A DNA stretch of 24,000 bases from an uncultured Acetivibrio sp. (GCA_949841225.1 CATKYY010000002.1:25357-49356), one strand, 5' to 3'. Shown: positions 4,607 to 22,191, numbered from the stretch's first letter. Numbers and translations are program-made. The notes: generated by a model from the letters alone, not told the origin.

Positions 4607-4648
4607 ATTCCTCCTCATTTCTGCGCGGCTTTTCACGCGTAACAAGTT
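4607..4648 (-). repeat. Conserved pre-start leader element, copy D (upstream of fructokinase)
   Basis: Sense strand: AACTTGTTACGCGTGAAAAGCCGCGCAGAAATGAGGAGGAAT|ATG. It shares the block GCMGYGCRGAAATRRGG at -23..-7 from the ATG with copies A-C. Confidence 0.55.
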
Positions 4649-4713
4649 CTATCCTAAGACGCGTTTGAAAGTCGCCTTCTAAAAAGCGCCCTCCAAACAC
4701 GTCTCTACATCCT

Positions 4714-4742
4714 ATTATATCTTAAATTACCCGACCTTGCAA
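4714..4742 (-). promoter_or_regulatory. Candidate internal sigma-A promoter (TTGCAA-17 nt-TATAAT) inside the 3' end of the alpha-galactosidase gene, driving fructokinase and amidase
   Basis: On the minus-strand sense, the -35 TTGCAA is at 4737-4742 and the -10 TATAAT is the complement of 4714-4719, with a 17-nt spacer. A 10-bp stem follows almost immediately (4694-4703 pairs with 4658-4667, one G-U pair). Confidence 0.5.
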
Positions 4743-6925
4743 AACCGAAATTGAATTGGCGTAAAATCCCCTTGCTTTACAGGCAGCGGCATACCAGCCT
4801 TCATAAGGGCGGCTCCCGTATATAATTTCTCTGTTTCCATGTCCTTATATACTGCTTCCGATTCCAGTCCCCTTAAATAAATCAGGTGGATATGCGGATT
4901 GGCTTCATTGCGGAGCATTACCCCATGGACAATAGTTTCTTTTTTATCTTTCGACACAAATTGCCATACCACATAATCCCTGTTTTTAAATGGACTTGAC
5001 AAACGATGATAATCTCCTGTCTGCACAAGATGCTCCATTGCCTTATATTCCTGAATTTGCTTTTTAGCCAGCTCCTTTTCCTCTGCCGACATATGCTCTA
5101 AATCCAGTTCAAAGCCAAAGGTTCCCGCGCTGGCCACAATACCCCTGGTTTCCTGTGGGGTTGTCCGTCCTGTCTGATGATTCGGGCAGACGCTTAAATG
5201 AGCCCCCATAGTACTGATTGGGTATCCAAAGGAAGTGCCGTATTGTATTTTTAAACGATCTATCGCATCCGTATTATCGCTGCACCAAATCTGCGGAGAA
5301 TAATAAAGCATCCCCGCGTCAAACCTTCCGCCTCCGCCAGAACAGTTTTCAAACAGTATATCCGGGTATCTTTGGACCAAAGCCTCCATCATTTCGTAAA
5401 CCCCAAGAACATACCTGTGAAATACTTCTCCCTGACGCTCCTTTGGAAGAGCCAGCGAATATACATTGTCCACGCTTCGGTTCATATCCCATTTCACATA
5501 ATCTACGCTACAGCTGTCTAAAACTTTGAAAATCTGTCCCATTACATATTCTCGGACTTCTTTTCTTGTAATATCCAGGTTGAGCTGATGGCGGCTGCGG
5601 TTCATATGCCTCTCCGGGATGCGAAGACACCAGTCAGGATGCTTGCGGTAAAGTTCGCTGTCCTCAGAAATCATTTCCGGCTCAATCCAAATGCCAAATT
5701 TCATGCCGATTCCTTTAATCTTCTTGACAAGCTTTGGAAGACCGCCCCGAATTTTCTCTTCATTTACGGTCCAGTCGCCAAGTCCAGAATAATCCGAATC
5801 CCGTTTCCCAAACCATCCATCATCTAAAACAAACATGTCCAGACCAATCTCTTTTGCCTCTTTTGCAATATTAAATAACTTCTCCTCATTAAAGTCAAAA
5901 TAGGTCGCTTCCCAATTATTCACAAGAATCGGCCGCGGCGTATTAACATATTTACTGCGGATTAAATTCGAGCGGTAAGCATCATGGTAAATATGAGACA
6001 GTCTTCCAAGACCTTCTGCCGAATAGGCTATAATTACCTCTGGAGTCTCAAACATATCCCCCTGATTCAGCCGATAGGAAAAATGATATGGATGAATTCC
6101 CATAACAAGCCTCGTCTGCTCCATCTGGTCCACTTCAATCTCACAACGGTAATTTCCGCTGTATACCAGTGCAAACCCATAGCAATCCCCATGGGTTTCC
6201 GTTGTTTTCTTATCGCAGAGAATTACAAATGGGTTATGCTGGTGGCTGGAGGTTCCTCTCTTGCTTTCCACAGATTGTACTCCATGATGCAGAGGAAGAC
6301 GTTCTTTTAGCCTTTCCATACAGTGCCTTCCATAAAAATGAATCAAATCCATATTTTTATTTGGATAATCCATTTCCATAGACATAGCGCGCTGGATTGT
6401 TATCTGCTTTTCTCCTTCATTTTTAATACGAACTGCTCTTGTAATAACATCCAGCTTTGGGAATACCCCATACAATAAATGCACCTTCAAGTTACTAATA
6501 TTGTCGCATAAAACAATTTCCAGAGTCTCCGCCTCATCTTCATCTCCATACATTGCCGGAAGCCCGGAAAGAGAATATTTTCCCTTCCTAATCTGATGCG
6601 ATTCATAGCATAAGCGTACCGCATCGCTTCCATCCTCGTGCTCTACCTCCATTCCGTTAATCCGGTAATCGCCGTTTCCATACCCGGAATATTCCTGAGG
6701 CAGCACGTCTAAGGAAAAGGTTCTGTCTTCTCCTGCTTCATACGGATTCCCTGAAAATCCTCTGTCCAGGGAAATAATGCGGTGAGTAACCTCCGTATCC
6801 CCTACATTTGCTCCATAATATAAATGTACCAAAGTTGCATGTTCTCTCACCTGCATTTGGTATGAACTGTTATTCGTGTTCAAACGAAATACTTTTGTCT
6901 CTTCATTGTAAGTAATATGCTTCAT
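4727..6925 (-). CDS. aga: Alpha-galactosidase, glycoside hydrolase family 36
   Basis: 732 aa. GH36 hallmarks are present: YVKWDMNR, ENCSGGGGRFD and LFVLDDGWFGKRD. The length and N-terminal beta-domain are typical of AgaA/RafA-type enzymes. Confidence 0.92.
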   Translation of the reverse strand: MKHITYNEETKVFRLNTNNSSYQMQVREHATLVHLYYGANVGDTEVTHRIISLDRGFSGNPYEAGEDRTFSLDVLPQEYSGYGNGDYRINGMEVEHEDGSDAVRLCYESHQIRKGKYSLSGLPAMYGDEDEAETLEIVLCDNISNLKVHLLYGVFPKLDVITRAVRIKNEGEKQITIQRAMSMEMDYPNKNMDLIHFYGRHCMERLKERLPLHHGVQSVESKRGTSSHQHNPFVILCDKKTTETHGDCYGFALVYSGNYRCEIEVDQMEQTRLVMGIHPYHFSYRLNQGDMFETPEVIIAYSAEGLGRLSHIYHDAYRSNLIRSKYVNTPRPILVNNWEATYFDFNEEKLFNIAKEAKEIGLDMFVLDDGWFGKRDSDYSGLGDWTVNEEKIRGGLPKLVKKIKGIGMKFGIWIEPEMISEDSELYRKHPDWCLRIPERHMNRSRHQLNLDITRKEVREYVMGQIFKVLDSCSVDYVKWDMNRSVDNVYSLALPKERQGEVFHRYVLGVYEMMEALVQRYPDILFENCSGGGGRFDAGMLYYSPQIWCSDNTDAIDRLKIQYGTSFGYPISTMGAHLSVCPNHQTGRTTPQETRGIVASAGTFGFELDLEHMSAEEKELAKKQIQEYKAMEHLVQTGDYHRLSSPFKNRDYVVWQFVSKDKKETIVHGVMLRNEANPHIHLIYLRGLESEAVYKDMETEKLYTGAALMKAGMPLPVKQGDFTPIQFRFCKVG

Positions 6926-6955
6926 ACTTTGTCCTCTCTACATTCATATTTTATA

Positions 6956-6991
6956 CAAAAACACCCCTACGAATCCGCAGAGGCGTTTTTA
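6956..6991 (-). terminator. Rho-independent terminator or attenuator between the DUF624 gene and the alpha-galactosidase gene
   Basis: Minus-strand sense: AAAAACGCCTCT-gcggattcgt-AGGGGTGTTTTT gtat. The stem is 8 bp with two G-U pairs on the minus-strand RNA; the same positions are A-C mismatches on the plus-strand RNA. It is flanked by an A-tract and a U-tract. Confidence 0.5.
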
Positions 6992-6997
6992 AGTTTA

Positions 6998-7675
6998 TTA
7001 GAACACATATTGGTCGGTTCCAAATTCCAGCCTTTTTTCTTCCTCTACAGAAAAATATGGTCTAAACAATTTCCACATAAACCATGCATCTGCATACGCA
7101 GTGAGGGAAAATCCACACATCATCCAAATTAACAGATAGACCGGGAATAGCTGGGCATCCACCAATGTAAAGTACATCGGCGCAATGGTAATGGCTGCTA
7201 CAGCCAGGGCATAAAATATTTTCTTAACTGCAAAATAAAATGCATTCGTAATCAATTTCCTAATCTTATTTTCAAAGGCCGCAAGAGTGGGAAACACATA
7301 CAGCGCTATCAAAATCAGAGGAATACATATAGCCGTAACTATATATGAGAAAATCTGAGGCATCATTCCCGGCATTGTTAGAACCGCCTTTCTTTCCATA
7401 TAGATACATCCTGCGGAAAGAAGAAGAATCAGCCAAATTACCGTTGCCTGTAAAAAATTCTGCTTAAAGCTCCTGAAAAAATCCTTAAACACACTACAAT
7501 CCCCATTCTTATGCATCCTAAGAGTACAATAAAACAGCGATGTAGTCGCTGCTCCGGCCGTTATGACCGGAAGCGAGCATACAATCCATAACAGATTCAG
7601 CGCAATCAGCTGCCCCAAGAAAATGAAAATCCTTTGAAATAGACTGTTCTCATTTGTAAACAGACCCATATACAT
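6998..7675 (-). CDS. YesL/DUF624-family integral membrane protein
   Basis: MGLFTNENSLFQRIFIFLGQLIALNLLWIVCSLPVITAGAATTSLFYCTLRM is the characteristic DUF624 N-terminus, and there are ~6 TM segments. I set the start at ATG 7675 (or 7669). The track ORF start at 7750 would overlap the upstream permease by 35 nt. Confidence 0.7.
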   Translation of the reverse strand: MYMGLFTNENSLFQRIFIFLGQLIALNLLWIVCSLPVITAGAATTSLFYCTLRMHKNGDCSVFKDFFRSFKQNFLQATVIWLILLLSAGCIYMERKAVLTMPGMMPQIFSYIVTAICIPLILIALYVFPTLAAFENKIRKLITNAFYFAVKKIFYALAVAAITIAPMYFTLVDAQLFPVYLLIWMMCGFSLTAYADAWFMWKLFRPYFSVEEEKRLEFGTDQYVF

Positions 7676-7715
7676 TCCCCTTTTCCTTCTATATAGCTTT
7701 CCTGTTTTCCACCTT

Positions 7716-8540
7716 TTACAGTTTTCCACCTGATGTTGCAATACCTTCAATGAACTGTTTCTGGAAAATCAAATACAGAACAATCATTGGAATACATGCT
7801 AAAAGGGATGCCGCCATCAACTGCGGATAGTTATTCGTATACTGTCCCTGCATTTTAGCAAGAGCCGCCGACAATGGCATAAGGTCTCTGTTACAAATCA
7901 AAGGCCACATCAGGTCTTTGTATGCAAATACTGCAGTAAAGATACCCAGCGCTACCATAGAAGACCTTGTCAGAGGCGCCATAATGAATAAAAACGTCTG
8001 GCCAATATTACAGCCGTCAAGCCTTGCCGCTTCTTCCAAATCCCTTGGCAGCCCCATATATGCCTGCCTTAACAAGAAAGTACCAAAAGCAGTTACAAGT
8101 CCTGGGAATATCAATGCAAACATGGTATTTAACATTCCCATATTACTTACCATCAAATACTGTGGAATGATAAAAATCTGGCCCGGCACCATCATCTGGA
8201 ATAAAACCAGCGAGAACATCAAGTTCTTTCCCCGAAACTCCAGACGAGCAAAGGCATATCCCGCCAGGGTAGCTGTTAAAACAGCGGCTACCACACGTCC
8301 CAGAATAAGGAGCAGCGTATTAATATACAGGCCTATGAAATCCATGTTATTGATTACCGTTTCAAAGTTTGTCGTCAGCCACTTTGAAGGAAAAATTACA
8401 AACGGATCTACCGATGTAGACTCTGTAACCGTCTTAAATGCAGTCAAAATCATCCATAAAAATGGCACTAACATAGTGATAGATACCAGAACCAAAACGA
8501 CATGGATGATGATATTCATCATTTTTTCTCTCGCTTCCAT
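7716..8540 (-). CDS. Carbohydrate ABC transporter permease (CUT1 family, MsmG/MalG-like)
   Basis: 274 aa with six TM segments and the EAA loop LEEAARLDGCNIGQTFLFIMAPL. A strong SD (AAGGAGGG) precedes ATG 8540. Confidence 0.9.
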   Translation of the reverse strand: MEAREKMMNIIIHVVLVLVSITMLVPFLWMILTAFKTVTESTSVDPFVIFPSKWLTTNFETVINNMDFIGLYINTLLLILGRVVAAVLTATLAGYAFARLEFRGKNLMFSLVLFQMMVPGQIFIIPQYLMVSNMGMLNTMFALIFPGLVTAFGTFLLRQAYMGLPRDLEEAARLDGCNIGQTFLFIMAPLTRSSMVALGIFTAVFAYKDLMWPLICNRDLMPLSAALAKMQGQYTNNYPQLMAASLLACIPMIVLYLIFQKQFIEGIATSGGKL

Positions 8541-8552
8541 ATCTATCCCTCC

Positions 8553-9455: not shown

Positions 9456-9477
9456 TCCCTTTCATTAACCGACCGAT

Positions 9478-10767: not shown

Positions 10768-10894
10768 AGTTTCCTCCTTTTCGTCATAACGACATGTTTT
10801 TTCTGTGATTATTTTATCGTTTTATACAAATTTCATAAATGGAATAAAAAACTAACTTTATGGTTTTTTGAATATAGAAAAATGATTTTTTTTA

Positions 10895-10923
10895 TGGCAA
10901 AATGTCCTGCCTTGGGTTATAAT
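10895..10923 (+). promoter_or_regulatory. Candidate sigma-A promoter for the AraC-family regulator (TGGCAA-17 nt-TATAAT)
   Basis: TGGCAA at 10895-10900 and TATAAT at 10918-10923, ~35 nt upstream of ATG 10958, which has the SD AGGAGAA. Identified by eye only. Confidence 0.4.
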
Positions 10924-10957
10924 CAAAATATACTATAAAAAGAAGAAGGAGAATCGT

Positions 10958-11887: not shown

Positions 11888-11927
11888 GAACTCAGGGAGC
11901 TGCAGCTTCATGCCACAACTCCCTGAG
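11881..11927 (-). terminator. Rho-independent terminator closing the long minus-strand operon; also sits after the convergent AraC gene
   Basis: CTCAGGGAG (11891-11899) pairs with CTCCCTGAG (11919-11927), a 9-bp GC-rich stem. On the minus-strand RNA the stem is followed by UUCUUAUUUU (complement of 11881-11890). On the plus strand no U-tract follows. Confidence 0.6.
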
Positions 11928-11941
11928 CCCGATAACCTTAG

Positions 11942-12820
11942 CTATTCTATTGGTTTAAGATAAAAGCCTCCATAAAAATCTTCCGACTTAAAGGTATTGA
12001 TAATCGCATGGGGATCAACGTCCCTCATAAGCTTTGCAATATCCTGAATTTCATAACTGGACACTACCGTATGCAAAAGGCTTACGCTCTTTCCGCTGTA
12101 CCCTCCAATTCCATCCACTCTGGAAATACCATGCCGGTATTCTGCCACATACGCCTTGATAATATCGTCCGCTTTGCTTGTCGTCACCTGCATTGTCATA
12201 CGCTCATACCTGTGATAGAAGGAATCTATGGTTTTTGTAGAAATAAACTGGAATAAAATAGAATATCCCGCATACTCCCAGCCAAACATAAATCCGAAAA
12301 TAGTAATCAACGTCGCATTAAATACAAATACATAACTCCAAATGGATTTTCCCAGCTTATTGGAAATAAACAAAGCGACAAAGTCTACGCCTCCTGTGGA
12401 TGCATTTCCCTTCAGGGCGATTACCGTCATGATTCCGTAAGAAAAGCCTCCAAAAATAACATTCAGCAAAACATCGTCAAATAAAGGCTCAAAGCTTAAT
12501 ACCTTTAAAAAGAAGCTGGCAAAAAATACCTGGAGCAGAGAGAAAAATGTAAATCTTTTACTAATGCTCTTACTGCATAATATAGCTACTGGAATATTCA
12601 AAACCAACATTCCCAGAGAGGTAGAAAAAGAAAAACCAAAAAAGGTGGAAGTAATCTTTTCTATCAAAATAGCTACCCCTGTGAACCCGCTAGAAAGCAA
12701 ATTAATCGGGTTCATAAAAATTTTCATAATGGCCGCCTGTAAAAAGCCCGCCAATAAAACGCTCAGGAACGTATATAAATACCTTAATTTTTCATTATTT
12801 CTTATTATATGAATGTTCAT
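11942..12820 (-). CDS. YitT-family membrane protein with a C-terminal DUF2179-like domain
   Basis: 292 aa. There are ~5-6 TM segments including STGGVDFVALFISNK. The soluble C-terminal domain is ISRVDGIGGYSGKSVSLLHTVVSSYEIQDIAKLMRDVDPHAIINTF. The start ATG overlaps the CutC stop (ATGA at 12817-12820). Confidence 0.7.
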   Translation of the reverse strand: MNIHIIRNNEKLRYLYTFLSVLLAGFLQAAIMKIFMNPINLLSSGFTGVAILIEKITSTFFGFSFSTSLGMLVLNIPVAILCSKSISKRFTFFSLLQVFFASFFLKVLSFEPLFDDVLLNVIFGGFSYGIMTVIALKGNASTGGVDFVALFISNKLGKSIWSYVFVFNATLITIFGFMFGWEYAGYSILFQFISTKTIDSFYHRYERMTMQVTTSKADDIIKAYVAEYRHGISRVDGIGGYSGKSVSLLHTVVSSYEIQDIAKLMRDVDPHAIINTFKSEDFYGGFYLKPIE

Positions 12821-13557
12821 ATCCTTGCAACCAGCTTCTTAACTAAATTTTCATCGACCACATCGTAATCATTTTCATGAGGCTCCGCCGCATAAGCATA
12901 GGATACCTCCGGGCCTGTCGTGGTAGGATCGCACAGCCAGCCCTTACAGGAGCTGTGAACCTGTGAGATTCCCGTCTTTTCCATCATTTCCTTTGCATTA
13001 TCTGCATTCATGCCGCTGCCTGCCAACAGCTCAATGCGGTCCCCGTATTTCTTCTGTAAATCGGCAATCAGCTCCATTCCGTCCATGGCCTTGGCCTTCT
13101 GACCGCTGGTCAGCACGCGGGTAACTCCCATTTCTATTAGCTTTTCCATTGTCTGATATGGGTCCTGCACACAATCAAAAGCACGATGGAAAACAGCCTC
13201 GCCTTTATACTCTTTAATAATATCAATAATTTCCTGGGTTTGGGACTCATCCACATTACCCTCTTTGTCAAGACATCCAAAAGCAAGACCGTCCGCCCCA
13301 TTTTCCATTAGCAGCCTGGCATCCGCTTTCATAACCTCAAATTCAGCGGCGCTATAGCAGAATCCAGCTCCTCTTGGCCTTACCATGGCAATGACCCTCA
13401 GCTCTGTATTTTTCTTTGTTAAAAGCAAAGTTCCCAGAGATGGAGTCAGGCCTCCCAGATGTAACGCGCTGTTTAATTCAATACGGCCTGCTCCTCCATG
13501 GTACGCCGCCAGTGCATCCTCATAGCTTCCGCAGCATATTTCTATTACTTTTTCCAT
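12817..13557 (-). CDS. cutC: CutC-family TIM-barrel protein (annotated copper homeostasis protein; true function unclear)
   Basis: [42 protein letters not shown] matches the remembered E. coli CutC N-terminus ([38 protein letters not shown]). I chose the start at ATG 13557 over 13569 because it puts the gene in the same register relative to the conserved leader element as copies B-D. Confidence 0.85.
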   Translation of the reverse strand: [246 protein letters not shown]

Positions 13558-13599
13558 ATTAATCCCCATTTCCGCACTGCCTTTTATGCATAGCAGTCT
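13558..13599 (-). repeat. Conserved pre-start leader element, copy A (upstream of cutC)
   Basis: Sense strand: AGACTGCTATGCATAAAAGGCAGTGCGGAAATGGGGATTAAT|ATG. ACTGC can pair with GCAGT to form a short hairpin ending just 5' of the GGAAATGGGG SD region. Confidence 0.55.
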
Positions 13600-13611
13600 T
13601 ATATAAAGCGC

Positions 13612-14703
13612 TTATCGAATCATTAAAGTAAAGCTGTTGCTTGGCTTAATACAATCTAAAATCAACTGCTCGCCTGTATTGATATGCCCTACATAGTTAT
13701 ATTCATCGCTTGCTTTAATCTCATCTAAAACAACCATCAGCTCGCCTGCATAATGCTTCAAATTATCATTTACAATAATTACGTCTCCCTTTGTGAAAAC
13801 ATCCTTGACATTTTCACGAGGAGCGATGGTCTCTCCCTTATATTTTATCCTTGGGAAGCTGGACCTTACTACCAACTCATTACAGTCGTCCCTGGAAGCA
13901 TGCATATCGCAGATAATAATTTCCTTTTCAATATCAGAAACTCCCTCTGCCAAATCAACCTTCATGGAGATTTTATTCAGGTTTACCTCCGCCATAGCCT
14001 TTAACTCTTCTTCGCTTGCAAAAGCGTTTCCAACCATAAAGTCGTTGCAGAAGCCCAAAGCGTTCAAATGCCTTACCTGCACATCAATTGGAAGATCTCT
14101 GTGAATTTCCAGCGTTGGCAATCCGTCATAGACCTCCCACGGACCATGGGTATGTTCTTCCTGGCTTGTTACAAAAGCCGCGTTATTGAGGCCTAAAGGC
14201 TGGTATTTGCTGTTTAATTCTTTAAAACGAGCAAGACCCATGCCTGTATTCCTCTGTGGATAGAAATTGCTGCAAATGCACATATTCGTCCGATTGGCGC
14301 CCTTTTCTAACATCATAGCCAGCGCCATATTACCGGATGCATTGTACTCAATCAAAATATTATGCGGATTCTTGGTAATCTCAATATCCTCTAATTCTCC
14401 AAAGTGGCCGTCCAAACGAATCACGTCTACGCCCATCTGAGCGAAAACAGACAAATCCCTTGGAGTTGCCCCAAGCCTTTCAAAAACCTCCGGGTTCGTA
14501 TCTACAGATACCATCAAGCCGCTCTCATGAGCAACGTTGCAAAACTCTGTAAACTCCTCTACAATCTTTTCCTTACTTTCCTTCACGGATAATAAACAGG
14601 TAAATACTCTTTTGAAACCATACTTTCCAGCCAACCTCATATAGTTATAGCATTCTTCCTTTGAAGCATGCTCTGGATAAACAGAAATTCCAAGTCTTTT
14701 CAA
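13612..14703 (-). CDS. DUF871/MupG-family protein (putative 6-phospho-beta-glycosidase; family prototype is 6-phospho-N-acetylmuramidase)
   Basis: 363 aa. The N-terminus MKRLGISVYPEH...YGFKRVFTCLL...GLMVSVDTNPEVFERLG...GVDVIRLDGHFG follows the remembered S. aureus MupG pattern (LGFSVY...GF..IFTSL...VDIS...GLRMDYG). The start is TTG 14703, with GGAGG 7 nt upstream overlapping the stop of the preceding gene. Confidence 0.7.
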   Translation of the reverse strand: MKRLGISVYPEHASKEECYNYMRLAGKYGFKRVFTCLLSVKESKEKIVEEFTEFCNVAHESGLMVSVDTNPEVFERLGATPRDLSVFAQMGVDVIRLDGHFGELEDIEITKNPHNILIEYNASGNMALAMMLEKGANRTNMCICSNFYPQRNTGMGLARFKELNSKYQPLGLNNAAFVTSQEEHTHGPWEVYDGLPTLEIHRDLPIDVQVRHLNALGFCNDFMVGNAFASEEELKAMAEVNLNKISMKVDLAEGVSDIEKEIIICDMHASRDDCNELVVRSSFPRIKYKGETIAPRENVKDVFTKGDVIIVNDNLKHYAGELMVVLDEIKASDEYNYVGHINTGEQLILDCIKPSNSFTLMIR

Positions 14704-14714
14704 AATAATTCCTC

Positions 14715-15830
14715 CTATAAACCTTTTAGCATTTCATACAATGCATAGGCATAAATCTGTGCATTTTTTTCAATGTCGCAAATCCGCATCCACTCGTTCG
14801 GCAGATGCCCGATTCCTTTTTGTCCCTTAAAACTCGGTCCAAAAGGAACAATGTTTTTAACTACCTTAGCATAGGTGCCGCCGGTCGTTGTAACCGCGCT
14901 GCCGTCCTCGCCCATAATTTCTTCATAGGCCTTTTCCAGGGTCTTAATCAAATAAGTATCCTTCTCAAAAAATACCGGATTAATATTAGAATCCAAGGTA
15001 AGCGTCATATGCTCGCTGCAAAGCTTTCCAAGCTTTTCTTCCATGGTTTCCAGCTTATAAGAAGCCGGATAGCTGGAAACCAGCGTTAAACCGCAGGTCT
15101 CTTCATCCTGGAACAGCTCTACCTTCCTTACCTGGTTCTTTCCAAATTCCTCGTCTGAATAATCAACCCCAAGACTGACGGACAAATCGCTCTGGTTCAA
15201 AATATACTGGTTCATAAAGGAAACCAGTTCGTCCAGATTATCCTTTGGAAGGCTGTATTTATATACTGCCCGTCCTCTCTCGGCATAAATAACCGGATAT
15301 TTGCAGTCCGGCGTCCAGCCCATAAGCGGATATTTATGGTCCTTAAAGTACCATTTCATATCCTCCATCCCGGTTTCTTCATTTGTTCCAAAAATAATCT
15401 TAACCTTTAAAGGAAATTCATAGCCAAGATCTGCCAACGCCTTCATTGCATATAAGCAGCAAAACATTGGTCCTTTATTATCCAGTACTCCCCTTGCATA
15501 CAGAGTTCCATCGATCTCTGTACATACAAAAGGGTCCGTCTTCCAGGCGCCGTTAATATCTACAACATCTAAATGCCCAACACAGGCAATATAATCCTCC
15601 GTATCTGGTCCATAAGAAGCAATACCAATCTGATTTCCTACATTTTCTGTTTCAAATCCCAGCCTCTCTGCAATTTCCAGGGCTTTATTCAGGCAGTCGG
15701 TAACTCTTTTTCCGAAAGGATGCTCTGGCGTAGCCGTATCCTGACGAGAATCCATGTTACACACTGTTTTAATATCCTCTACTAAAGCCGGAAGCAATTC
15801 GCTGACATGATTAATAATCTTTTCTTTCAT
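14715..15830 (-). CDS. M20-family metallopeptidase (PepV/dipeptidase-like catalytic blocks)
   Basis: 371 aa with intact M20 ligand blocks: CVGHLDVVD, YARGVLDNKGP, FGTNEETG, WTPDCKYPVIYAERG, GIGHLPNE. No signal peptide. Confidence 0.8.
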   Translation of the reverse strand: MKEKIINHVSELLPALVEDIKTVCNMDSRQDTATPEHPFGKRVTDCLNKALEIAERLGFETENVGNQIGIASYGPDTEDYIACVGHLDVVDINGAWKTDPFVCTEIDGTLYARGVLDNKGPMFCCLYAMKALADLGYEFPLKVKIIFGTNEETGMEDMKWYFKDHKYPLMGWTPDCKYPVIYAERGRAVYKYSLPKDNLDELVSFMNQYILNQSDLSVSLGVDYSDEEFGKNQVRKVELFQDEETCGLTLVSSYPASYKLETMEEKLGKLCSEHMTLTLDSNINPVFFEKDTYLIKTLEKAYEEIMGEDGSAVTTTGGTYAKVVKNIVPFGPSFKGQKGIGHLPNEWMRICDIEKNAQIYAYALYEMLKGL

Positions 15831-15873
15831 AATTTACCCTATTTCTGCACTGCTATTTGTGCATTACAAGTTT
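15831..15873 (-). repeat. Conserved pre-start leader element, copy B (upstream of the M20 peptidase)
   Basis: Sense strand: AAACTTGTAATGCACAAATAGCAGTGCAGAAATAGGGTAAATT|ATG. It is identical to copy C at 34 of 43 positions by hand alignment. TGCAC can pair with GTGCA. Confidence 0.6.
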
Positions 15874-15878
15874 ACTTG

Positions 15879-16832
15879 TTATTCCTCAACTGGCGCCATA
15901 CGCACGCGCATATACTCTTCCAGCCATTCCTGGCTTGCTACCTCAAAGGTGCAATGGCCATCTTCCTGCCTAGTTACAAGATAGACGGTAGGCTCCAGCT
16001 CTTCTGTAGCGACACTAAAGGAAAAGCCTGCAATATTTGTAGCGCAGCCAAACTCTCCCTTATTATTCATTGCAACAACAGAAAGGTCTCCGGCTGCTCC
16101 TCTTTTTTCCTTCAGCTTCTTATCCAGGTCGTTTACTGCTTTTTCACAAGCCTCTTGCGGCGTCAGGCCTTCCTTCATTAAACGAACAATTTCATAAGAA
16201 ATACAGCCCTTCATTAAATCCTCTCCTAAACCGGTAGCTGTAGCGCCGCCGACTTCAGAATCTGCGTAAAATCCAGAACCAACAATTGGAGAATCTCCAA
16301 CACGGCCGCTTCTCTTCATAAATAAACCGCTTGTGCTGGTAGCCGCCGTCACTGTCCCGGAATTGTCCAGGCAAACCATACCTACCGTATCATGTCCGTC
16401 ATAAGGCTTTAATTCCTGGCTAAGTTCTTTTTTCTTTTTCCTGTAAAATGCTTTTGCCCGGTCAGTAAGCATTTCTTTTTCTTCAAATTTAAACTCATGG
16501 GCATATTTTTCTGCTCCAGCTCCTACCAGAACATTATTTACCTTTTCCTCGCTAAGCTTCTTTGCAATACTGATTGGATTTGCAAAATCCTTGATGGCTC
16601 CAATCGCGCCTACGCTCATTGTGTCCCCATCCATATAGCCTGCGTCCAGCTCAACCACCTGTTCTTCGTTTGGCAATCCGCCGTAGCCTACAGACTTATA
16701 ATATGGGAAATCCTCTACCGCGCGAATTGCGGCCTCAATCGCCTTACCTGATGTTTCTCCGTCCTTTAATAACCCTTCTGCAAGCTCAATTCCTTCTTTT
16801 GCCATTCTCCATGTGGCTATAATCCCATGCAT
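15879..16832 (-). CDS. Ntn-hydrolase of the asparaginase_2 family, glycosylasparaginase (aspartylglucosaminidase) type; cytoplasmic
   Basis: 317 aa. The autoprocessing and nucleophile block DGHDTVGMVCLD resembles human AGA RGHDTIGMVVI. GRVGDSPIVGSGFYAD resembles AGA GRVGDSPIPGAGAYAD. The N-terminus IIATWRMAKEG resembles AGA VVNTWPF, whereas isoaspartyl peptidases start with IHGGAG. SVGYGGLPNE...ELDAGYMDG is also present. The protein starts directly at the conserved core with no signal peptide. Confidence 0.75.
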   Translation of the reverse strand: MHGIIATWRMAKEGIELAEGLLKDGETSGKAIEAAIRAVEDFPYYKSVGYGGLPNEEQVVELDAGYMDGDTMSVGAIGAIKDFANPISIAKKLSEEKVNNVLVGAGAEKYAHEFKFEEKEMLTDRAKAFYRKKKKELSQELKPYDGHDTVGMVCLDNSGTVTAATSTSGLFMKRSGRVGDSPIVGSGFYADSEVGGATATGLGEDLMKGCISYEIVRLMKEGLTPQEACEKAVNDLDKKLKEKRGAAGDLSVVAMNNKGEFGCATNIAGFSFSVATEELEPTVYLVTRQEDGHCTFEVASQEWLEEYMRVRMAPVEE

Positions 16833-16843
16833 AAACCTTCCTC

Positions 16844-17908
16844 CTAATATTCTAATATTTCCCCATAAACCTTTTCATTCATATCCTTAGCAAGCTCACA
16901 AATCAGGCGGATACACGCCTCTACGTCATCTGCGTGAATAATGCTGTGATTTGTATGCATATACCTGATAGGAATTGACAAAGTCATATTCACAACTCCC
17001 TCAAATGCCTTATGGATATTTCCAGAATCCGTTCCGCCCATATTAAATATTGCATATTGATGCTCAATATCATTCTTTTTGCAAATCGACTCAACATACC
17101 TGACAAGTCCCCGCGGGGCAATAGAGTTAGAATCAATCATTGACAGCACTACGCCTTTGCCCAAAGAGCAAATATTATGGTTCATCGGCGTATCGCCAGC
17201 TAAAGTAGTATCAATAGCAAAGGCAATATCTGGATACACCGTCTCTACAGCCGTCCTGGCTCCGCGAAGCCCCGGCTCTTCCTGAACTGTATTCGCCAGG
17301 TACAGCGGCGTATGCTCTTCCTTTTCCAGTCTTTTAGCGGCCTCTATCATAATATAATTGCCAATACGGTCGTCAAAGGCCTTACAGGAGATATATTTCT
17401 GATTGTTCATAACCTCAAAATGGGCTAATGGGGCTACCATATCCCCAACCTGAATTCCCAGGTCCAGCGCCTCCTGCTTGCTTCCAACGCCCAAATCCAG
17501 ATACACGTCTTCAATAGAAACCGTTTTGTTCCTGGTTTCCGCAGGCAGCCCATGCGTTGCCATGCTGCCCATCAGAGCATGGTATTCCCTTTTATCTCTT
17601 GTTACAATAGTATACCACTGCCCTAAAACCATATGGCTCCACCAGCTACCGATTGTCTGTACCTTAATAAATCCATGGTCGTCAATGCTTTTTACCATAA
17701 ACCCAACTTCATCCATATGGGCTGCAACCATCATCTTAGGTCCGCTGTGATTGGTACATTTACTAGCGATTACACTGCCCAACCCATCTCTTTCACATGG
17801 AAGGTTAAGAGCCTTATATTCTTCCTCCAGAATATTTCCAATTTCCTGTTCAAAAGAGGAAATACCATAGGCAGAACATATTTTATCTAATTTTTCTAAA
17901 TTAATCAT
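16844..17908 (-). CDS. M42-family (TET/FrvX-like) aminopeptidase with an intact metal site
   Basis: All five M42 ligand blocks are present: AAHMDEVG, KAFDDRIGN, VQEEPGLRGA, AFAIDTT, RYMHTNHS. I set the start at ATG 17908 (MINLEKLDKICSAYGISSFE). It aligns with the N-terminus of the upstream paralogue, lies 1 nt after that gene's TGA, and has GGTGAT upstream. The track start at 17935 would overlap by 26 nt. Confidence 0.85.
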   Translation of the reverse strand: MINLEKLDKICSAYGISSFEQEIGNILEEEYKALNLPCERDGLGSVIASKCTNHSGPKMMVAAHMDEVGFMVKSIDDHGFIKVQTIGSWWSHMVLGQWYTIVTRDKREYHALMGSMATHGLPAETRNKTVSIEDVYLDLGVGSKQEALDLGIQVGDMVAPLAHFEVMNNQKYISCKAFDDRIGNYIMIEAAKRLEKEEHTPLYLANTVQEEPGLRGARTAVETVYPDIAFAIDTTLAGDTPMNHNICSLGKGVVLSMIDSNSIAPRGLVRYVESICKKNDIEHQYAIFNMGGTDSGNIHKAFEGVVNMTLSIPIRYMHTNHSIIHADDVEACIRLICELAKDMNEKVYGEILEY

Positions 17909-17909
17909 T

Positions 17910-18926
17910 TCAATCACCAAACCCAAATTCAGCAAGCTTTTTAGAATTTATTGTTTCTAAATAAGCGGCCAATGCATTAACTAAAGCATCCACGTCCTCT
18001 GCCCTGCAGATTTCATTTGCGCTTCCCATATTATCTACTGCAATGCCCACGCTGATTGCAGGGGTTCCCTTTAACGTCTTATGAATAAAAGAACCGTCGT
18101 TTCCAGTCAGACCAAAATAAGCCTTTGTTTCCACTTCTTTTGCAAAATCCTTTAAAAATACCTGGGACGGCAACATCTGGCGGTCATAATAACCAAGAAC
18201 AACGCCGTCTCCCGGATGCACCTTTTTCTGCGCTGTATCAAAGCCTGTCAGAGCAATAGCGGCATCCGGCTTAATTACATAGGTTGCCGTTTTCGTTCCT
18301 CTGTACCCAATAACAGACTGTCCAATACACCCGGCAGCAATATGGAAATCAAATTCTTTATCTTTTATCTTTTCCATAAGCTCCAGCGTAACCTCATTGA
18401 AAACACGAGGGAAAAGAGCCTTTGACATAATAATTCCGTTATTTTCATTGAAATTATTTCCATAAGCTACCAGGTCTCCCGGATGAAGCAGCTCCTTCAT
18501 CTCATCATACTTCAAACCGCACTCAATTACCAAGTCGTCTGCGCTCTTGATTTCACACTTATCTTCCAGCGCCTTTTTCCCCGTAGTAATTACGCCGTCT
18601 ACATAGGTATTCTCTCTTGTCAGTATCCGCACGCGCTGATGCAAAAGAGAGCTTGGCGAAACGCTTTCCAACTGAATGAATGCAAGAGTTCCATTGTCCT
18701 TTACTTCTGAAACCATAAGCCCTACTTCGTCCAATGCAGAAGCGATCATCAATGTCTGCGCCGTTTCATTCTTTGACCTTTTGAATGCAAAAACCGAGCC
18801 CAGCCGATCGCATTTTATTTCATCGCATAAAGGCTCATAATCTTTTTGAAGCGTTCTTCCAATCATATGCTCCGCGCTGCTGACCCCAAAACTATTACAT
18901 AATTTTTCTAATCTCTTGGTATCCAT
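17910..18926 (-). CDS. M42-family paralogue with all five metal-ligand positions substituted (probable pseudo-peptidase subunit)
   Basis: 338 aa, colinear with the downstream M42 (MDTKRLEKLCNSFGVSSAE vs MINLEKLDKICSAYGISSFE). The ligand blocks read ASALDEVG (H to A), KALFPRVFN (DD to FP), GQSVIGYRG (EE to SV), AIALTGF (D to T) and VDNMGSANE (H to G). The SD AAAGGAG precedes ATG 18926. Confidence 0.75.
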   Translation of the reverse strand: MDTKRLEKLCNSFGVSSAEHMIGRTLQKDYEPLCDEIKCDRLGSVFAFKRSKNETAQTLMIASALDEVGLMVSEVKDNGTLAFIQLESVSPSSLLHQRVRILTRENTYVDGVITTGKKALEDKCEIKSADDLVIECGLKYDEMKELLHPGDLVAYGNNFNENNGIIMSKALFPRVFNEVTLELMEKIKDKEFDFHIAAGCIGQSVIGYRGTKTATYVIKPDAAIALTGFDTAQKKVHPGDGVVLGYYDRQMLPSQVFLKDFAKEVETKAYFGLTGNDGSFIHKTLKGTPAISVGIAVDNMGSANEICRAEDVDALVNALAAYLETINSKKLAEFGFGD

Positions 18927-18941
18927 AATTCTCCTTTTTTT

Positions 18942-18970
18942 AAAAGGCCTTATTAAAAATAAGGCCTTTT
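18942..18970 (-). terminator. Intra-operon 11-bp perfect hairpin; weak terminator, attenuator or processing/stability element
   Basis: AAAAGGCCTTA (18942-18952) is the exact reverse complement of TAAGGCCTTTT (18960-18970), with a 7-nt loop. It lies between the GrdB-like gene stop (18975) and the SD of the first M42 gene. Only a 4-U tract is available on the sense RNA. Confidence 0.4.
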
Positions 18971-18974
18971 ACAT

Positions 18975-19499
18975 TTAATAACAAACTCGGTTTTTAATGC
19001 TCTCAAGATCGCTCGAATTTTCAACCATGCCTGTAATAAGGTCGCATAAATCTGAGAAACTGTCATTTAAGCCGGTTCCTCCCTTTTTCGGCATTTTAAC
19101 AATAGGAGTTTTGTCTTTATAATTTTCAATTGTGTCTGCATTTTCAACCGACATCATAGCGCAGGACTTAAGATCCGTGTTCTCTGAAATGGACGCGGAA
19201 ATCATAGCCGCCATTTTAGCATAATCAGGGAAGTTAAAGCATGGGCCGCATACAACAAAGTCAGGGTTTACCTTCTTTGCCATAGCTGTCATTTTCTTTA
19301 TAACCTCTTCCTGGTTGTTTAAGAAATATTCATTACCGCAATATAAAGTAGCAGCAACTGTAGCTCCGATTTTAGCAAAATGGGATTCCAGCATCAACGC
19401 TGAACCAATACCGCCCTTTACAGCAGTCAATCCAACATTTGGATTTGTTTTTCCTCCGGCTCCAGCTAAGCCTTGATCAAAAATCAATACTATTTTCAT
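18975..19499 (-). CDS. Stand-alone homologue of the N-terminal domain of glycine/sarcosine/betaine reductase component B (GrdB-like); function unknown
   Basis: 174 aa. MKIVLIFDQGLAGAGGKTNPN...GIGSALMLESHF...ATVAATLYCGNEYFLNNQEEVIKKM...NPDFVVCGPCFNFPDYAKMAAMISASI parallels my recollection of GrdB N-termini (VVHYINQFFAGIGGEEKAD...GPGMALQ...IVATVICGDSYFNEN...PDLFIAGPAFNAGRYG). There is no in-frame TGA. I set the start at ATG 19499, 2 nt after the EIIC TGA; the track uses TTG 19505. Confidence 0.45.
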   Translation of the reverse strand: MKIVLIFDQGLAGAGGKTNPNVGLTAVKGGIGSALMLESHFAKIGATVAATLYCGNEYFLNNQEEVIKKMTAMAKKVNPDFVVCGPCFNFPDYAKMAAMISASISENTDLKSCAMMSVENADTIENYKDKTPIVKMPKKGGTGLNDSFSDLCDLITGMVENSSDLESIKNRVCY

Positions 19500-19501
19500 A
19501 A

Positions 19502-20854
19502 TCAATCCAACCCCAAATCATCAAATGATAAATCGTCAATTTCGTCTGTCTGTCCTTCCAGCGCACTTTCCTCATCTAAATACTTCTTATCCAGCAGCTT
19601 GAAGAATGGGTAGTAAACTAAAATATCTACTACTAACTGAACAATCTGGACAAGAGAGCCCATTACGCTTCCTGTTACCAGGAAACCGGATGCGATGATA
19701 GGAGTCGTCCATGGAAGCTGAACGCCTAATGTGATTGGCATAATACCTACAACAGTAGCTAAATATGCAATAATTGTGTTAATAACTGGCACCAGGATAA
19801 ACGGAATTGCCATCAATGGGTTTAATACCATTGGCAGACCGAAAATAATCGGCTCATTAATTCCGAAGATACCTGCCGGCAATGACAGCTTTCCAAGAGT
19901 TTTCATACGGTTTGACTTTCCTAAGAACGCCATCATGATAACCAGGCCCAGAGTACTTCCGCCGCCGCCAAAGTTACAGAAGAAATCTGAGAAACCAGCT
20001 GTAAAGATGTTGGTCATTTCCAAACCAGCCTGAGCTGCTTCATAGTTTTCAACTGTCAGTACCTTATGTATAGGAGCGAAAATTGTATTGGTTACGGCTG
20101 GTCCGTTAATACCGAAAAACCAGAACAAGGTGGATAAGAACTGATAGATTACTTCAAATCCTGCCAACTTACCTAAACCAACCAATGGAGCCTGCAGTAC
20201 CTGATAAATAAAGTAATGTACATATTTGTAGCTTGTGTGGTCGAATATAATACCAATCGCAAAGAAGATAACCATTGCAATCGCAGATGGTATCAATGCT
20301 GCTAAAGATTCCATTACTGCAGGAGGCACGCCTTCTGGCAATTTAATAATCAATTTCTTCTTAATAGCCCAGGCATAAATCTCAACAGATATAATTGCAG
20401 TAATCATCGCAAGGAACATACCTGCAGTTCCTAAGAAAGTGAAAGTAAATCCACTAACAGAGCCTGCTTCTGCAGCGCCTTCTAATTCTACGATAGTTTT
20501 CTGTGGAGTAATAATCAAGAAACATACTAAAGCTACAACTCCGCCGCCGATTCTGTTTTCCAAGCCTTTTTCACGGGCATAACAATAACCAATACTCAAT
20601 ACGCCCAGCAGAGCAACGCAGTCAAAAGCAATCGCTGTTACCCTTCCCATGTAAGCGTCCCAGCCTTCTCCAAAAATAGAGGTCATGAAGTTTAAAAAGC
20701 CCTCTATTGGGAAGTTAGAAATTAACAGGAAAATAGAACCAACAATGGTAATTGGGACAGTAATCAAAAATCCGTCTCTAATCGCAGATAATACCTTATT
20801 CTTTGACAGAATATTTGCAACAGGCATTAAAAGCTTTTCAAGTTTCTGCATCAT
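19502..20854 (-). CDS. PTS EIIC, lactose/cellobiose/chitobiose (Lac) family
   Basis: 450 aa and polytopic. The Lac-family EIIC signature GINEPIIFGLPMVLNP resembles ChbC/CelB ITEPVIFGLPIVMNP. An acidic C-terminal tail (DEESALEGQTDEIDDLSFDDLGLD) is present. Confidence 0.9.
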   Translation of the reverse strand: MMQKLEKLLMPVANILSKNKVLSAIRDGFLITVPITIVGSIFLLISNFPIEGFLNFMTSIFGEGWDAYMGRVTAIAFDCVALLGVLSIGYCYAREKGLENRIGGGVVALVCFLIITPQKTIVELEGAAEAGSVSGFTFTFLGTAGMFLAMITAIISVEIYAWAIKKKLIIKLPEGVPPAVMESLAALIPSAIAMVIFFAIGIIFDHTSYKYVHYFIYQVLQAPLVGLGKLAGFEVIYQFLSTLFWFFGINGPAVTNTIFAPIHKVLTVENYEAAQAGLEMTNIFTAGFSDFFCNFGGGGSTLGLVIMMAFLGKSNRMKTLGKLSLPAGIFGINEPIIFGLPMVLNPLMAIPFILVPVINTIIAYLATVVGIMPITLGVQLPWTTPIIASGFLVTGSVMGSLVQIVQLVVDILVYYPFFKLLDKKYLDEESALEGQTDEIDDLSFDDLGLD

Positions 20855-20857
20855 AAA

Positions 20858-21181
20858 TTAATTCCCTCTACTTTCTTTGTAAATCTTCAGTGCCTTTTTC
20901 AGAACTCTCTCGCCGTCTACGTTACCATAGTCAACGCTATCAATAACGGTAACAACATGGTCCTTACTATATCTTTCAGCAACCTTCTCATAAAGATGCT
21001 TTACCTGCGGCCCTAACAGAATTACTTCTGGATTGAATTCATTTACAATATCACCCATGTTGGCCTCAGAAAATGCCTTTACCTCCAAATCCAGCTTATG
21101 CGCGTCAGCAACTTTCTGCATTTTGCTTGCTAACAAACTTGTAGACATTCCAGCGCTGCAAAATAAATAGAATCTTTTCAT
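20858..21181 (-). CDS. PTS EIIB, chitobiose/cellobiose type
   Basis: MKRFYLFCSAGMSTSLLASKM matches E. coli ChbB HIYLFCSAGMSTSLLVSKM, including the phospho-Cys. LLGPQV and VIDSVDYGNVDGERVLK also parallel ChbB. Confidence 0.92.
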   Translation of the reverse strand: MKRFYLFCSAGMSTSLLASKMQKVADAHKLDLEVKAFSEANMGDIVNEFNPEVILLGPQVKHLYEKVAERYSKDHVVTVIDSVDYGNVDGERVLKKALKIYKESRGN

Positions 21182-21200
21182 TGCTCTCTCCCTCCTTCCC

Positions 21201-21509
21201 TTAATTTTTATTTTTGTATAACTCGATCAACTCTGCAACTAACAGCTTTGCTGTTTCTGCAGCCATTAATTGATCTTCCGCGTGCATTAACAGCAGGCAC
21301 ATTTCTGTTTTCTCTCCGCCTGCCTCTTTAGAAATCAAATCCGCATGCTGCTTATGTCCGTTTGCATAGCATTCATCTCCATGCTTCATTGTTTCCGCAG
21401 CCTTCTCAAAATCTCCTTTCTTAGCGCATTCCAGGGCGTTGATATAATCGCTCTTCGCCTCCCCGACAGCGGAAATAATTTTAAAGCAAATTAATTCCAT
21501 TTCTTCCAT
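21201..21509 (-). CDS. PTS EIIA, lactose/cellobiose/chitobiose type
   Basis: 102 aa of helical-bundle type. ...AKKGDFEKAAETMK...LLLMHAEDQLMAAE...AELIELYK parallels E. coli ChbA (QAKQGDFAAAKAMM...LVLVHAQDHLMTS...TELIELHEK), including the phospho-His. Confidence 0.9.
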   Translation of the reverse strand: MEEMELICFKIISAVGEAKSDYINALECAKKGDFEKAAETMKHGDECYANGHKQHADLISKEAGGEKTEMCLLLMHAEDQLMAAETAKLLVAELIELYKNKN

Positions 21510-21523
21510 AAGTATATACCTCC

Positions 21524-22084
21524 TTAAATTTTTTTATTTTCAATTACTTTACTGCGCGCCAAATAATCATGGACCGCCATATTGCTTTTAAATACCAGGA
21601 TCGCCGACACCGTCAACATTCCTGAGCTTATATAGTTTAATGCTTTTCCAGCCATGTCGAAGGTCAGCATAGAAACTATCTGCGTAAAATAATTACCGGT
21701 AAGCATAAAAGCTCCCTCTAAAAGCATAACTCCTGCAAGCTGTCGTATAGCAAGCTTTCCAGTGGAAAGCGGCTGGCCATTCTCATCAACAATCTTAATA
21801 CCCATAAGTTTTTTCCCTACTGTCTGGCCTTCCCATGCCCATAAAGGAATAATATAATAGTATACAGCGCCAAACAATAGTCCCAACAAGCCCGCCAACA
21901 ATCCATAAGGACTTTTAAATAAAGTAAGATCCGTATTGATTGCCTCTTCTCCTGTCAGCATATTCCATAAAAGACCCGCCGGTATTGTACTGAAAGCAGA
22001 CCCCAGATACCAGTCGATTAAAAATGCAAAGCCCCTTTTATTCCACGGCGCAAATGCTGCTTTCAATTTCGTTTGTTTTTTCAT
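21524..22084 (-). CDS. RDD-family membrane protein; first gene after the regulator
   Basis: 186 aa. WNKRGFAFLIDWYLGS and GQTVGKKLMGIKIVDENG are typical RDD-domain blocks, and there are 3-4 TM segments. Confidence 0.65.
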   Translation of the reverse strand: MKKQTKLKAAFAPWNKRGFAFLIDWYLGSAFSTIPAGLLWNMLTGEEAINTDLTLFKSPYGLLAGLLGLLFGAVYYYIIPLWAWEGQTVGKKLMGIKIVDENGQPLSTGKLAIRQLAGVMLLEGAFMLTGNYFTQIVSMLTFDMAGKALNYISSGMLTVSAILVFKSNMAVHDYLARSKVIENKKI

Positions 22085-22127
22085 ATTTTACCCTATTTCT
22101 GCGCTGCTTTCTGAACACGACGAGTTT
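22085..22127 (-). repeat. Conserved pre-start leader element, copy C (upstream of the RDD gene, i.e. of the PTS operon)
   Basis: Sense strand: AAACTCGTCGTGTTCAGAAAGCAGCGCAGAAATAGGGTAAAAT|ATG. The AAGCAGCGC part (complement of 22101-22109) pairs perfectly with GCGCTGCTT (complement of 22133-22141), giving a 9-bp stem with a 23-nt loop. Confidence 0.6.
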
Positions 22128-22157
22128 GTAGCAAGCAGCGCGTAGCACAAATCTCGG

Positions 22158-22180: not shown

Positions 22181-22191
22181 TTAGCCTTATT

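Follow-up and report, generated by a model that had tools for sequence, protein, structure and literature searches.

The 24,000-nucleotide (nt) stretch of DNA analysed here, referred to as the window, lies on contig C2 of a draft genome of an uncultured Acetivibrio sp. (GCA_949841225.1 CATKYY010000002.1:25357-49356), and four of its minus-strand genes are preceded by a conserved leader of about 43 nt that ends at the start codon. We found that this leader belongs to a dispersed, sense-oriented and structured repeat, copies of which were gained at sites that are empty in congeners, and whose helices have been kept by compensatory changes. In the reading that we favour, and consider probable though well short of certain, the leader forms the 3′ part of a repeat that is non-autonomous, has proliferated in the Lachnospiraceae and occupies translation-initiation regions in register with the ATG. 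Judged from the sequences, the element appears to replace or displace the ribosome-binding site (RBS) of the gene that it precedes. The source genome, G000, comprises 2.42 Mb in 237 contigs (42.6% G+C, 89% complete); coordinates are window positions unless a contig or locus is named, and G001 and G002 are genomes of the same genus.

Copies in start-codon register and their fold

The initial annotation had described four leaders, A to D, and these were indeed located on the minus strand (positions are given with the individual copies below), each running up to an ATG. The 17-nt core GCMGYGCRGAAATRRGG, which had been noticed in all of them, has four exact matches in the window, every one of them minus-strand and spanning -23 to -7; a recount confirmed 34 identities over 43 positions between copies B and C, and the remaining genes of the window have ordinary GGAGG/AGGAG-type Shine-Dalgarno (SD) sequences at variable spacing, as had also been said. 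Dinucleotide-preserving shuffles gave an expectation of 0.06 matches to the core in the window, and none of 100 shuffles reached four. Genome-wide, the core has 60 exact matches in G000, 120 with at most one mismatch and 208 with at most two, on more than 100 contigs, and a start codon stands exactly 6 nt past it in 138 of 202 copies. The motif is thus far above chance and start-codon-proximal, the outcome by which the initial annotation had proposed to judge it. The leader itself is therefore real, but it is not limited to four genes, and its 43 nt represent only the 3′ half of a larger unit. An explanation by chance similarity, owing to SD sequence and AT-rich composition or to local operon duplication, can point to the SD present in the motif and to nothing further; the excess over shuffles, the hundreds of copies on over 100 contigs and the conserved covarying helices upstream of the SD, described below, make it exceedingly improbable.

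An nhmmer profile built from long copies detected 189 copies in G000, and a covariance model gave 119 matches. Nearly all profile matches reach the 3′ end of the model, and their 5′ ends are variable. As many as 153 of the 189 copies directly precede an open reading frame (ORF) of at least 60 amino acids (aa) starting with ATG (143 copies), TTG (6) or GTG (4); the other 36 are mostly upstream members of tandem pairs or triplets with a spacing of ~97 nt, or are located at contig ends. The orientation relative to the downstream gene is essentially sense only. The ATG is positioned 10 nt after the GAAAU of the element tail, and the spacer between SD and start codon is 6 nt at 82% of the element-associated starts of G000, whereas the modal spacing of native genes accounts for 18%, with a spread of 3-12 nt. 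In other species 37 of 39 copies adjoin a real ORF, as do all 20 copies considered in G072 (GCA_964602475.1). A co-directional ORF ends within 400 nt upstream of 148 of the 189 copies, and within 60 nt upstream of 87, which indicates that the element is mostly intercistronic. Metatranscriptome contigs of the organism end short of every copy.

Taking ~2,300 genes, an estimate from genome size, the 189 copies correspond to about one gene in twelve (~8%). The genes downstream are functionally unrelated; they encode a PfkB kinase, CutC, an M20 peptidase, an RDD protein, GDPD, a histidine kinase, 4-alpha-glucanotransferase, an aminotransferase, an AI-2E transporter and an SNF symporter, among others, so that a pathway regulon is unlikely. 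The proposal that the leader co-regulates four genes, or sets expression within one polycistron, is accordingly unsupported, as the element precedes ~8% of genes of unrelated function.

The full unit is about 88-100 nt long, with 92-98 nt from its first triplet to the ATG in an alignment of long copies. At its 5′ end is an AT-rich hairpin, H1, with GTG or TTG (RTG hereafter) as the opening triplet; this is followed by the 5′ arm of helix P2 (consensus AAGUUUGUG), two bases further on by the 5′ arm of helix P3 (UGCACGGC and variants), and then by the 3′ arm of P2 (CACAAACUU); P2 comprises about 10 bp and P3 about 8 bp. A variable stretch after the 3′ arm of P2 can pair with the start of the next arm as a small hairpin, P4, and is followed by an invariant A-run, the 3′ arm of P3 (GCCGUGCA) and the GAAAU of the tail. 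The end of the element is made up of the tail GCAGAAAU, a 4-nt SD (GAGG, GGAG or GGGG) and a 6-nt A/U-rich spacer, after which comes the ATG. Helices P2 and P3 are interleaved, the 5′ arm of P3 being located inside the loop of P2, and would give rise to an H-type pseudoknot or to alternative folds; under the usual geometric constraints a pseudoknot would be compatible with the loops, which measure 2, 3 and ~13 nt, the longest being A-rich in its 3′ part. There are two main subfamilies in G000, which differ in H1 and in stem sequences.

At one position of P3 the pair is A-T in 48 cases and G-C in 44, and at another it is G-C in 45 and T-A in 52, the two bases switching in step; at the P3 position that is free of ascertainment bias, G·T and A·C occur in a ratio of 10:1. 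For P2 we counted 820 Watson-Crick cells, 52 G·U and 7 A·C, and several arm variants are compensated. These compensatory changes, together with the large excess of G·U over A·C, indicate that it is the sense strand that folds. In a 17-sequence alignment 96% of the cells are paired, compared with 24-40% when the partners are slid, and five pairs have changed on both sides. Among 92 profile-aligned copies, in which unpaired columns are 26% diverged from the consensus, non-consensus cells still pair in 135 of 184 cases for P2 and in 119 of 185 for P3, with 81 and 61 double changes, respectively, and the A-run and the GCAGAAAUG tail are nearly invariant. Although P3 was left out of the structure of the covariance model, it is kept in copies from other species by means of different bases.

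These results also bear on the pairings that had been seen in the four leaders. The local pairings are real: TGCAC/GTGCA in copy B is helix P4, the 9-bp pairing GCGCTGCTT/AAGCAGCGC in copy C is helix P3, and the AAACTYGT block common to copies is the 3′ arm of P2; the presence of a hairpin directly 5′ of the SD was borne out as well. It is also true that the pairing registers differ between the window copies, because copies A, B and D are 5′-truncated remnants that retain only the 3′ arm of P2, P4, the tail and the SD. The conclusion that there is no clean covariation does not hold, however, for full-length copies, in which it is clean.

Type-1 copies have a folding energy of about -32 kcal/mol, with z = -5 to -7 relative to shuffles, and type-2 copies and the truncated window copies are unremarkable in this respect. 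Masking of the SD by the ACC located just after H1 (AACC with GGUU in the minimum free energy (MFE) fold) was considered and rejected, as this pairing does not covary (3.23 observed and 3.25 in shuffled sequences). We found no promoter-like (sigma-70-like) or terminator-like site inside the window copies. In some other species (L136, L068, L101, L098 and others) an extra GC-rich hairpin or an insert of up to ~70 nt is present between the 3′ arms of P2 and P3; such copies keep P2, P3 and the tail, and the insert behaves like the variable stem of a structured RNA.

Gain at orthologous sites and spread across the Lachnospiraceae

The junctions of the window have no DNA match in the two congeners G001 and G002, so that other contigs were used to compare filled and empty sites. 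Contig C22 of G000 is syntenic with a contig of G002 at 70-74% identity, and the BLAST segments between them break exactly at copies of the element. At three junctions, J1-J3, the 91-186 nt of element in G000 correspond to 6-33 nt with a native SD in G002; J2 and J3, the two junctions found in G001, are empty there too. Parsimony therefore indicates that the copies were gained in the lineage of G000. At two of the three filled sites the native SD is gone and a 5′-truncated element begins right after the upstream stop codon, and at the third a purine-rich tract homologous to the native SD is kept upstream of the element. Similarly, six congeners of G072 are empty at one site and have AGGAGG-type SDs there. 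The sites of the window are filled in all other assemblies of the species that exact-protein look-ups returned.

Two further observations were made in these comparisons. In two congeners of G072 (G169 and G174; loci L210 and L211) the stretch GTAGAAATGGAG, 7-8 nt and an ATG precede a gene paralogous or homologous to the cysteine desulfurase gene of G072; this stretch resembles the tail alone and may, to go by its sequence, be a very short remnant of an older copy. The stretches L056:9301-9429 (contig C11 of G000) and L057:17065-17149 (contig C22 of G000) have many congener matches at 74-99% identity; they probably have nothing to do with the element and represent tRNA genes or some other conserved repeat or small RNA.

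Among 40 related genomes the exact core is all but missing. With the covariance model, diverged copies were detected in about a quarter of these 40, G011 having 19, G002 five and G001 none. When one genome was taken per genus, 21 of 151 Lachnospiraceae genera had copies, and separate expansions were seen in G072 (at least 32 copies), G118 (20), G088 (11), G149 (10) and G116 (9), which shows that amplification took place independently in several genera. Carriers are Lachnospiraceae, largely genomes from the gut of mouse and other animals, and no similar sequence was found in phage and plasmid collections. Isolates with matches include Lachnospiraceae bacterium IMSAGC_002, "Bacterium D16-51" and Lachnospiraceae bacterium strain 526-35. 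Taken together with the 189 copies in G000 and the empty orthologous sites, this spread over many genera bears out one of the roles put forward in the initial annotation, that of a small dispersed intergenic repeat.

The copies in G000 are old, with a median pairwise identity of 62% and nearest neighbours at ~80%. A young family is present in G072, in which an 88-nt interior running from GTGTGAAAG to CAGAAAT is 2.8% diverged. The flanks of this interior are 25-50% diverged on both sides, with the exception of a TA preceding the element and a pair of invariant G's in the SD, and the ATG is located exactly 10 nt after GAAAT in 15 of 20 copies. We conjecture that the graded conservation on both sides of the young copies, with an SD on each side, reflects copy-choice or recombination via SD microhomology.

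On the reading that we favour, copies would arise by insertion or copying into translation-initiation regions, and would be tolerated because the gene stays expressed from a functional SD that remains 6 nt from the ATG. In the mRNA, the hairpin and H-type pseudoknot directly 5′ of an exposed SD would constitute a uniform, insulated initiation module, whose fold would be kept either for propagation or for a benefit to the downstream cistron, such as stability, processing or protein binding. Once the element is in place, the native SD and the dispensable 5′ part would decay, giving remnants such as copies A, B and D.

The tail is located exactly 10 nt from the ATG despite variable intervening sequence, which leads to a more specific reading, in which the element would be a mobile RNA-structured module of a new kind that takes the start codon as the reference point for its integration, the pseudoknot and the leader RTG together forming a natural "RBS cassette" at up to ~8% of genes. 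We regard this version as rather unlikely. It would imply a process of copying or insertion able to read translation-initiation regions, for example template switching at SD microhomology by a polymerase or reverse transcriptase acting on mRNA, followed by recombination.

Mobilisation, function and the leader frame

Several results weigh against a proliferating repeat. First, no strain-level insertion polymorphism was seen at the sites examined, including one in a second G072 strain, which has the copy as well. Second, the old and diverged copies of G000 still keep their helices, which fits an RNA function at each locus as well as, or better than, pure selfishness. Third, in the young G072 family the SD and spacer are far more variable than the interior, so that an element-borne SD and an adjoining native SD both fit. 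Fourth, no mobilising function was linked to the element: the Y1 (HUH) transposase family PF01797 has no match in the draft of G000, although control genomes were positive, and the flanks of the seven TnpB genes of G000 have no similarity to the element profile. Fifth, the element has no terminal inverted repeats, as its 5′ end and the reverse complement of its 3′ end match at 5-8 of 22 positions in three subfamily consensuses. Sixth, the two flanks of each of 20 young G072 copies are alike at 4.65 of 8 positions, compared with 4.52 of 8 between copies (p = 0.31). With respect to the last two points, the longest word common to the 5′ end and the reverse complement of the 3′ end has 4-6 nt, both flanks are SD-like, and a few copies have copy-specific direct repeats of 8-9 nt.

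Known classes of mobile or recombining sequence were considered in the light of these data. An IS200/IS605 origin (REP/REPIN with RAYT, or PATE) was rejected because a Y1 transposase is missing from the draft and the ends of the TnpB genes bear no relation to the element, and a classical miniature inverted-repeat transposable element because there are no terminal inverted repeats. An integron attC site would not fit by the order of the GTT/AAC-type boxes, and the filled sites have no added cassettes. For IS110, G000 contains a sub-threshold fragment only; it has one reverse transcriptase gene. Among the 189 profile matches in this 89% complete genome, no split copies enclosing a gene were seen. 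The TnpB-like ORFs, on contigs C32, C85, C107, C10, C20, C14 and C11 (loci L184-L186), encode 385-452 aa and have a conserved structured 3′ flank of the omega-RNA/reRNA type, with no Y1 TnpA detected in the draft; on C107 the TnpB gene is followed by an AT-rich hairpin that resembles H1 of the element.

The retained fold could instead mean that the element is a cis-regulatory RNA, that is, a pseudoknotted site for a global RNA-binding protein, a small RNA (sRNA) or a ligand, which would co-regulate the ~190 genes and would have spread by selective recruitment. The helices are compensated in copies whose mutual divergence amounts to 20-40%, no parts vary less than the unpaired A-run and the GCAGAAAU tail, and the variable insert or extra hairpin in other species resembles the variable stem of a functional RNA. 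In addition, two of six carrier genes from other genera have homologs in G000 (37% and 52% identical) that also have a copy, which likewise counts against the repeat reading. The carrier genes are, however, functionally unrelated, congener orthologs do without the element and have normal SDs, and copy number ranges from 0 to ~190 between related genomes, with one near-identical burst. Moreover, there is no expression platform (no terminator, and the anti-SD pairing does not covary) and no matching Rfam family. Among the features by which riboswitches and cis-regulatory leaders are recognised, the element thus has a conserved covarying structure and lacks a coherent gene association and an expression platform. 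On balance we judge a cis-regulatory RNA to be rather unlikely.

A related possibility concerns mRNA processing and 5′ stabilisation. Endonucleolytic cleavage upstream of the element would leave the fold at a new 5′ end, where it would block 5′-exonuclease and set the stability of the cistron. Such a role is well established in principle, as Firmicute mRNAs are protected from RNase J1 by stem-loops at the 5′ end and by ribosomes bound at the SD (ermC, aprE, cryIIIA STAB-SD). The mostly intercistronic location in co-directional gene arrays, the stable compact fold directly 5′ of the SD and the retention of exactly the last hairpin and tail in truncated copies all agree with it, but the fixed register to the ATG and the lineage-specific bursts would be left unexplained, and we give this explanation a low probability.

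The RTG in H1 raises the question whether the element is itself translated, either as a leader cistron or as an N-terminal extension. Ribosomes would start at the element GTG or TTG by means of the old native SD and translate the folded part, and would either melt the fold and so activate the downstream SD, in a coupling relay similar to a bicistronic design, or continue in frame into the gene. In all full-length copies a purine-rich, SD-like tract lies 4-8 nt ahead of the RTG. For 14 of 38 copies it looks like a strong native SD (background 5%), and for 14 of 38 it is the SD of the preceding copy. In 34 of 38 copies no stop codon interrupts the RTG frame within the element, the other two frames being closed in 38 and 28 of the 38, respectively. 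In G072 the distance from RTG to ATG is 96 nt, in frame and open, and public annotation starts one G072 gene at the element GTG, giving 430 aa instead of 397.

On the other hand, the 92-98 nt from RTG to ATG fall into all three phases (18, 12 and 8 copies) and single-base insertions and deletions in the H1 loop shift the RTG frame, so that no conserved peptide is encoded. Of 12 clear cross-species copies, 4 have a closed frame, open frames in related copies are not independent observations, the RTG is buried inside the H1 stem, and many functional-looking copies lack H1 altogether. The translated 32-mers have no Pfam match, and a conserved leader peptide was therefore rejected, as its frame is not conserved either. 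A leader-cistron relay accordingly represents a minority possibility, and a doubtful one. The G072 gene mentioned above is cysteine desulfurase-like (Aminotran_5) and is located on contig C9 (L222:1198-2490), where it is called from the element GTG. A contig of a second G072-type strain (L223) begins inside the element, which is a typical assembly break at a repeat. The family probably adds spurious N-terminal extensions of ~32-33 residues to many database proteins.

The window copies, comparable systems and implications

Copy C is a near full-length element of the type-2 subfamily and extends, by alignment and fold, from H1 to the last base of the spacer at 22085-22180 (minus strand, as are all features in this and the next paragraph). 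Its hairpin H1 (GATTGAAAAT...ATTTTCAATC; 22158-22180), the arms of which pair in the MFE fold, contains the element TTG at 22178-22176; an SD-like AAGG is located before the latter at 22188-22185, and the stop codon of the upstream gene at 22194-22192. The 5′ arm of P2 (CGAGATTTG; 22148-22156) pairs with 22121-22128, its 3′ arm (CAAACTCG) and the AAACTYGT block of this copy, in a helix that is supported family-wide. Within the P2 loop, the 5′ arm of P3 (GCGCTGCTT; 22133-22141), supported by covariation and fold, has as its partner the 3′ arm (AAGCAGCGC) at 22101-22109. The invariant tail AGAAAT, the SD-like AGGG and the 6-nt spacer TAAAAT occupy 22085-22100, and the ATG at 22084-22082 belongs to an RDD-family gene (Pfam RDD), the first gene of a phosphotransferase system (PTS) IIA/IIB/IIC block.

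The other three copies are the truncated remnants. Copy B (15831-15873; covariance-model match at C2:41187-41237) has retained the 3′ arm of P2, P4, tail, SD and spacer, with the P4 hairpin formed by TGCAC at 15863-15859 and GTGCA at 15850-15846; it begins 5 nt past the stop codon (15881-15879) of an asparaginase_2 gene and runs up to the ATG of the M20 peptidase gene (15830-15828). Copy A (13558-13599) ends at the ATG of cutC (13557-13555), the upstream MupG gene ending at 13612. Copy D (4607-4648) ends at the ATG of a PfkB-family sugar kinase gene (4606-4604) and is located in a 5′ untranslated region, with a promoter-like site upstream at 4743-4714, outside the element.

Copies A to C lie in a gene cluster (12817-24000, minus strand) that looks like a PTS-dependent locus for the utilisation of amino sugars or muropeptides. 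By Pfam its genes encode a PRD/Mga-type regulator with an EIIA domain, RDD, PTS IIA/IIB/IIC, M42, M20, asparaginase_2/isoaspartyl peptidase, MupG and CutC; MupG belongs to the 6-phospho-N-acetylmuramidase family. At the DNA level neither G001 nor G002 has a counterpart of this cluster.

Among described repeats, the REP2 elements of Neisseria are 120-150 bp long, occur in ~25 copies, carry a promoter and precede a co-regulated set of genes (PMC3184786). REP2 and the IR-A/IR-B sequences of Borrelia resemble the element in that they have no terminal inverted repeats, have internal stem-loops and are located directly upstream of ORFs, for which they supply the RBS/ATG context (PMC3184786). The element differs from REP2 in its length of 88-100 nt, its up to ~190 copies, the lack of a promoter-like site, its mostly intercistronic location, its interleaved pseudoknot-type helices, its exact ATG register, its unrelated genes and its occurrence in another phylum, a comparison made by description. 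MIRUs, of 40-100 bp and in 40-50 copies, are co-transcribed, are reported to have short direct repeats and imperfect terminal inverted repeats, show stop/start coupling and contain open frames that touch their neighbours (PMC3184786); like the element, they are located within operons, are co-oriented, have filled and empty sites and form short tandem arrays (PMC3184786). In the element the RTG frame is mostly open, with a phase to the ATG that varies. The element, in contrast, has no terminal inverted repeats and no significant duplication, and it has the fixed 10-nt register from tail to ATG and a covarying pseudoknot-type fold.

The ERIC/IRU, Correia/NEMIS, BOX/RUP and REP/BIME families are likewise small non-autonomous repeats that are transcribed with their neighbours, can fold in mRNA and vary in copy number in a lineage-specific way, and they insert at varied intergenic positions in both orientations. 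The element differs from these types in that it is found essentially only in sense orientation and adjoins the start codon.

A search against Rfam gave no match in the window at gathering thresholds; at E ≤ 1, the tandem loci and 20 bare elements gave a sub-threshold match to drum RNA and noise (glutamine riboswitch, mir-981), and full-length copies matched none of the Rfam ribozyme families at E ≤ 1. The alignment to drum RNA (RF02958) is full-length and includes a hairpin, an interleaved GUUGUG...ACCACAAAC segment, a small hairpin and a GAAA-rich tail. It scored, however, 20.2 bits against a gathering threshold of 43 (E = 0.67) at one tandem locus, and the 20 isolated elements had no match at E ≤ 1, so that the element was not assigned to this family. 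Drum has a 3′ Rho-independent terminator, is rarely found in potential 5′ untranslated regions and is linked to particular proteins (PMC5737381). In the element, by contrast, an SD, 6 nt and an ATG follow, there is no terminator-like site at the window copies, and an association with such proteins is lacking.

Searches of the literature returned no description of such an element in Lachnospiraceae, or of RBS-bearing repeats of the same type. Synthetic RBS insulators (bicistronic designs, ribozymes or hairpins) are engineered structured modules that are put immediately 5′ of an SD, with or without a short upstream cistron, and give a uniform initiation region. The element may be likened to them as a standard structured module 5′ of an SD, an insulating effect being suggested here by analogy only. 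In our best reading the family is a functional analogue of Neisseria REP2 and of MIRUs, and it is itself undescribed as far as Rfam and the searched literature show, which makes the element a candidate for a new structured-RNA family in Rfam.

The family would, if the favoured reading holds, also pose a hazard for annotation, as gene callers start at the element GTG, with one public case, and would thereby add spurious N-termini of 32-33 residues, and assemblies break at its copies. With one standard structured 5′ context repeated naturally ahead of ~190 different genes, the family would be useful for studying how upstream structure influences initiation. For an insertion or copying process that ends in exact register with a start codon there is no described mechanism. 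If the reading that we favour is true, about one gene in twelve of this gut bacterium has had its own ribosome-binding region replaced or displaced by a single small element, and this has happened independently in several Lachnospiraceae genera; the family would then be a clear natural example of repeat-driven, genome-wide turnover of translation-initiation regions.

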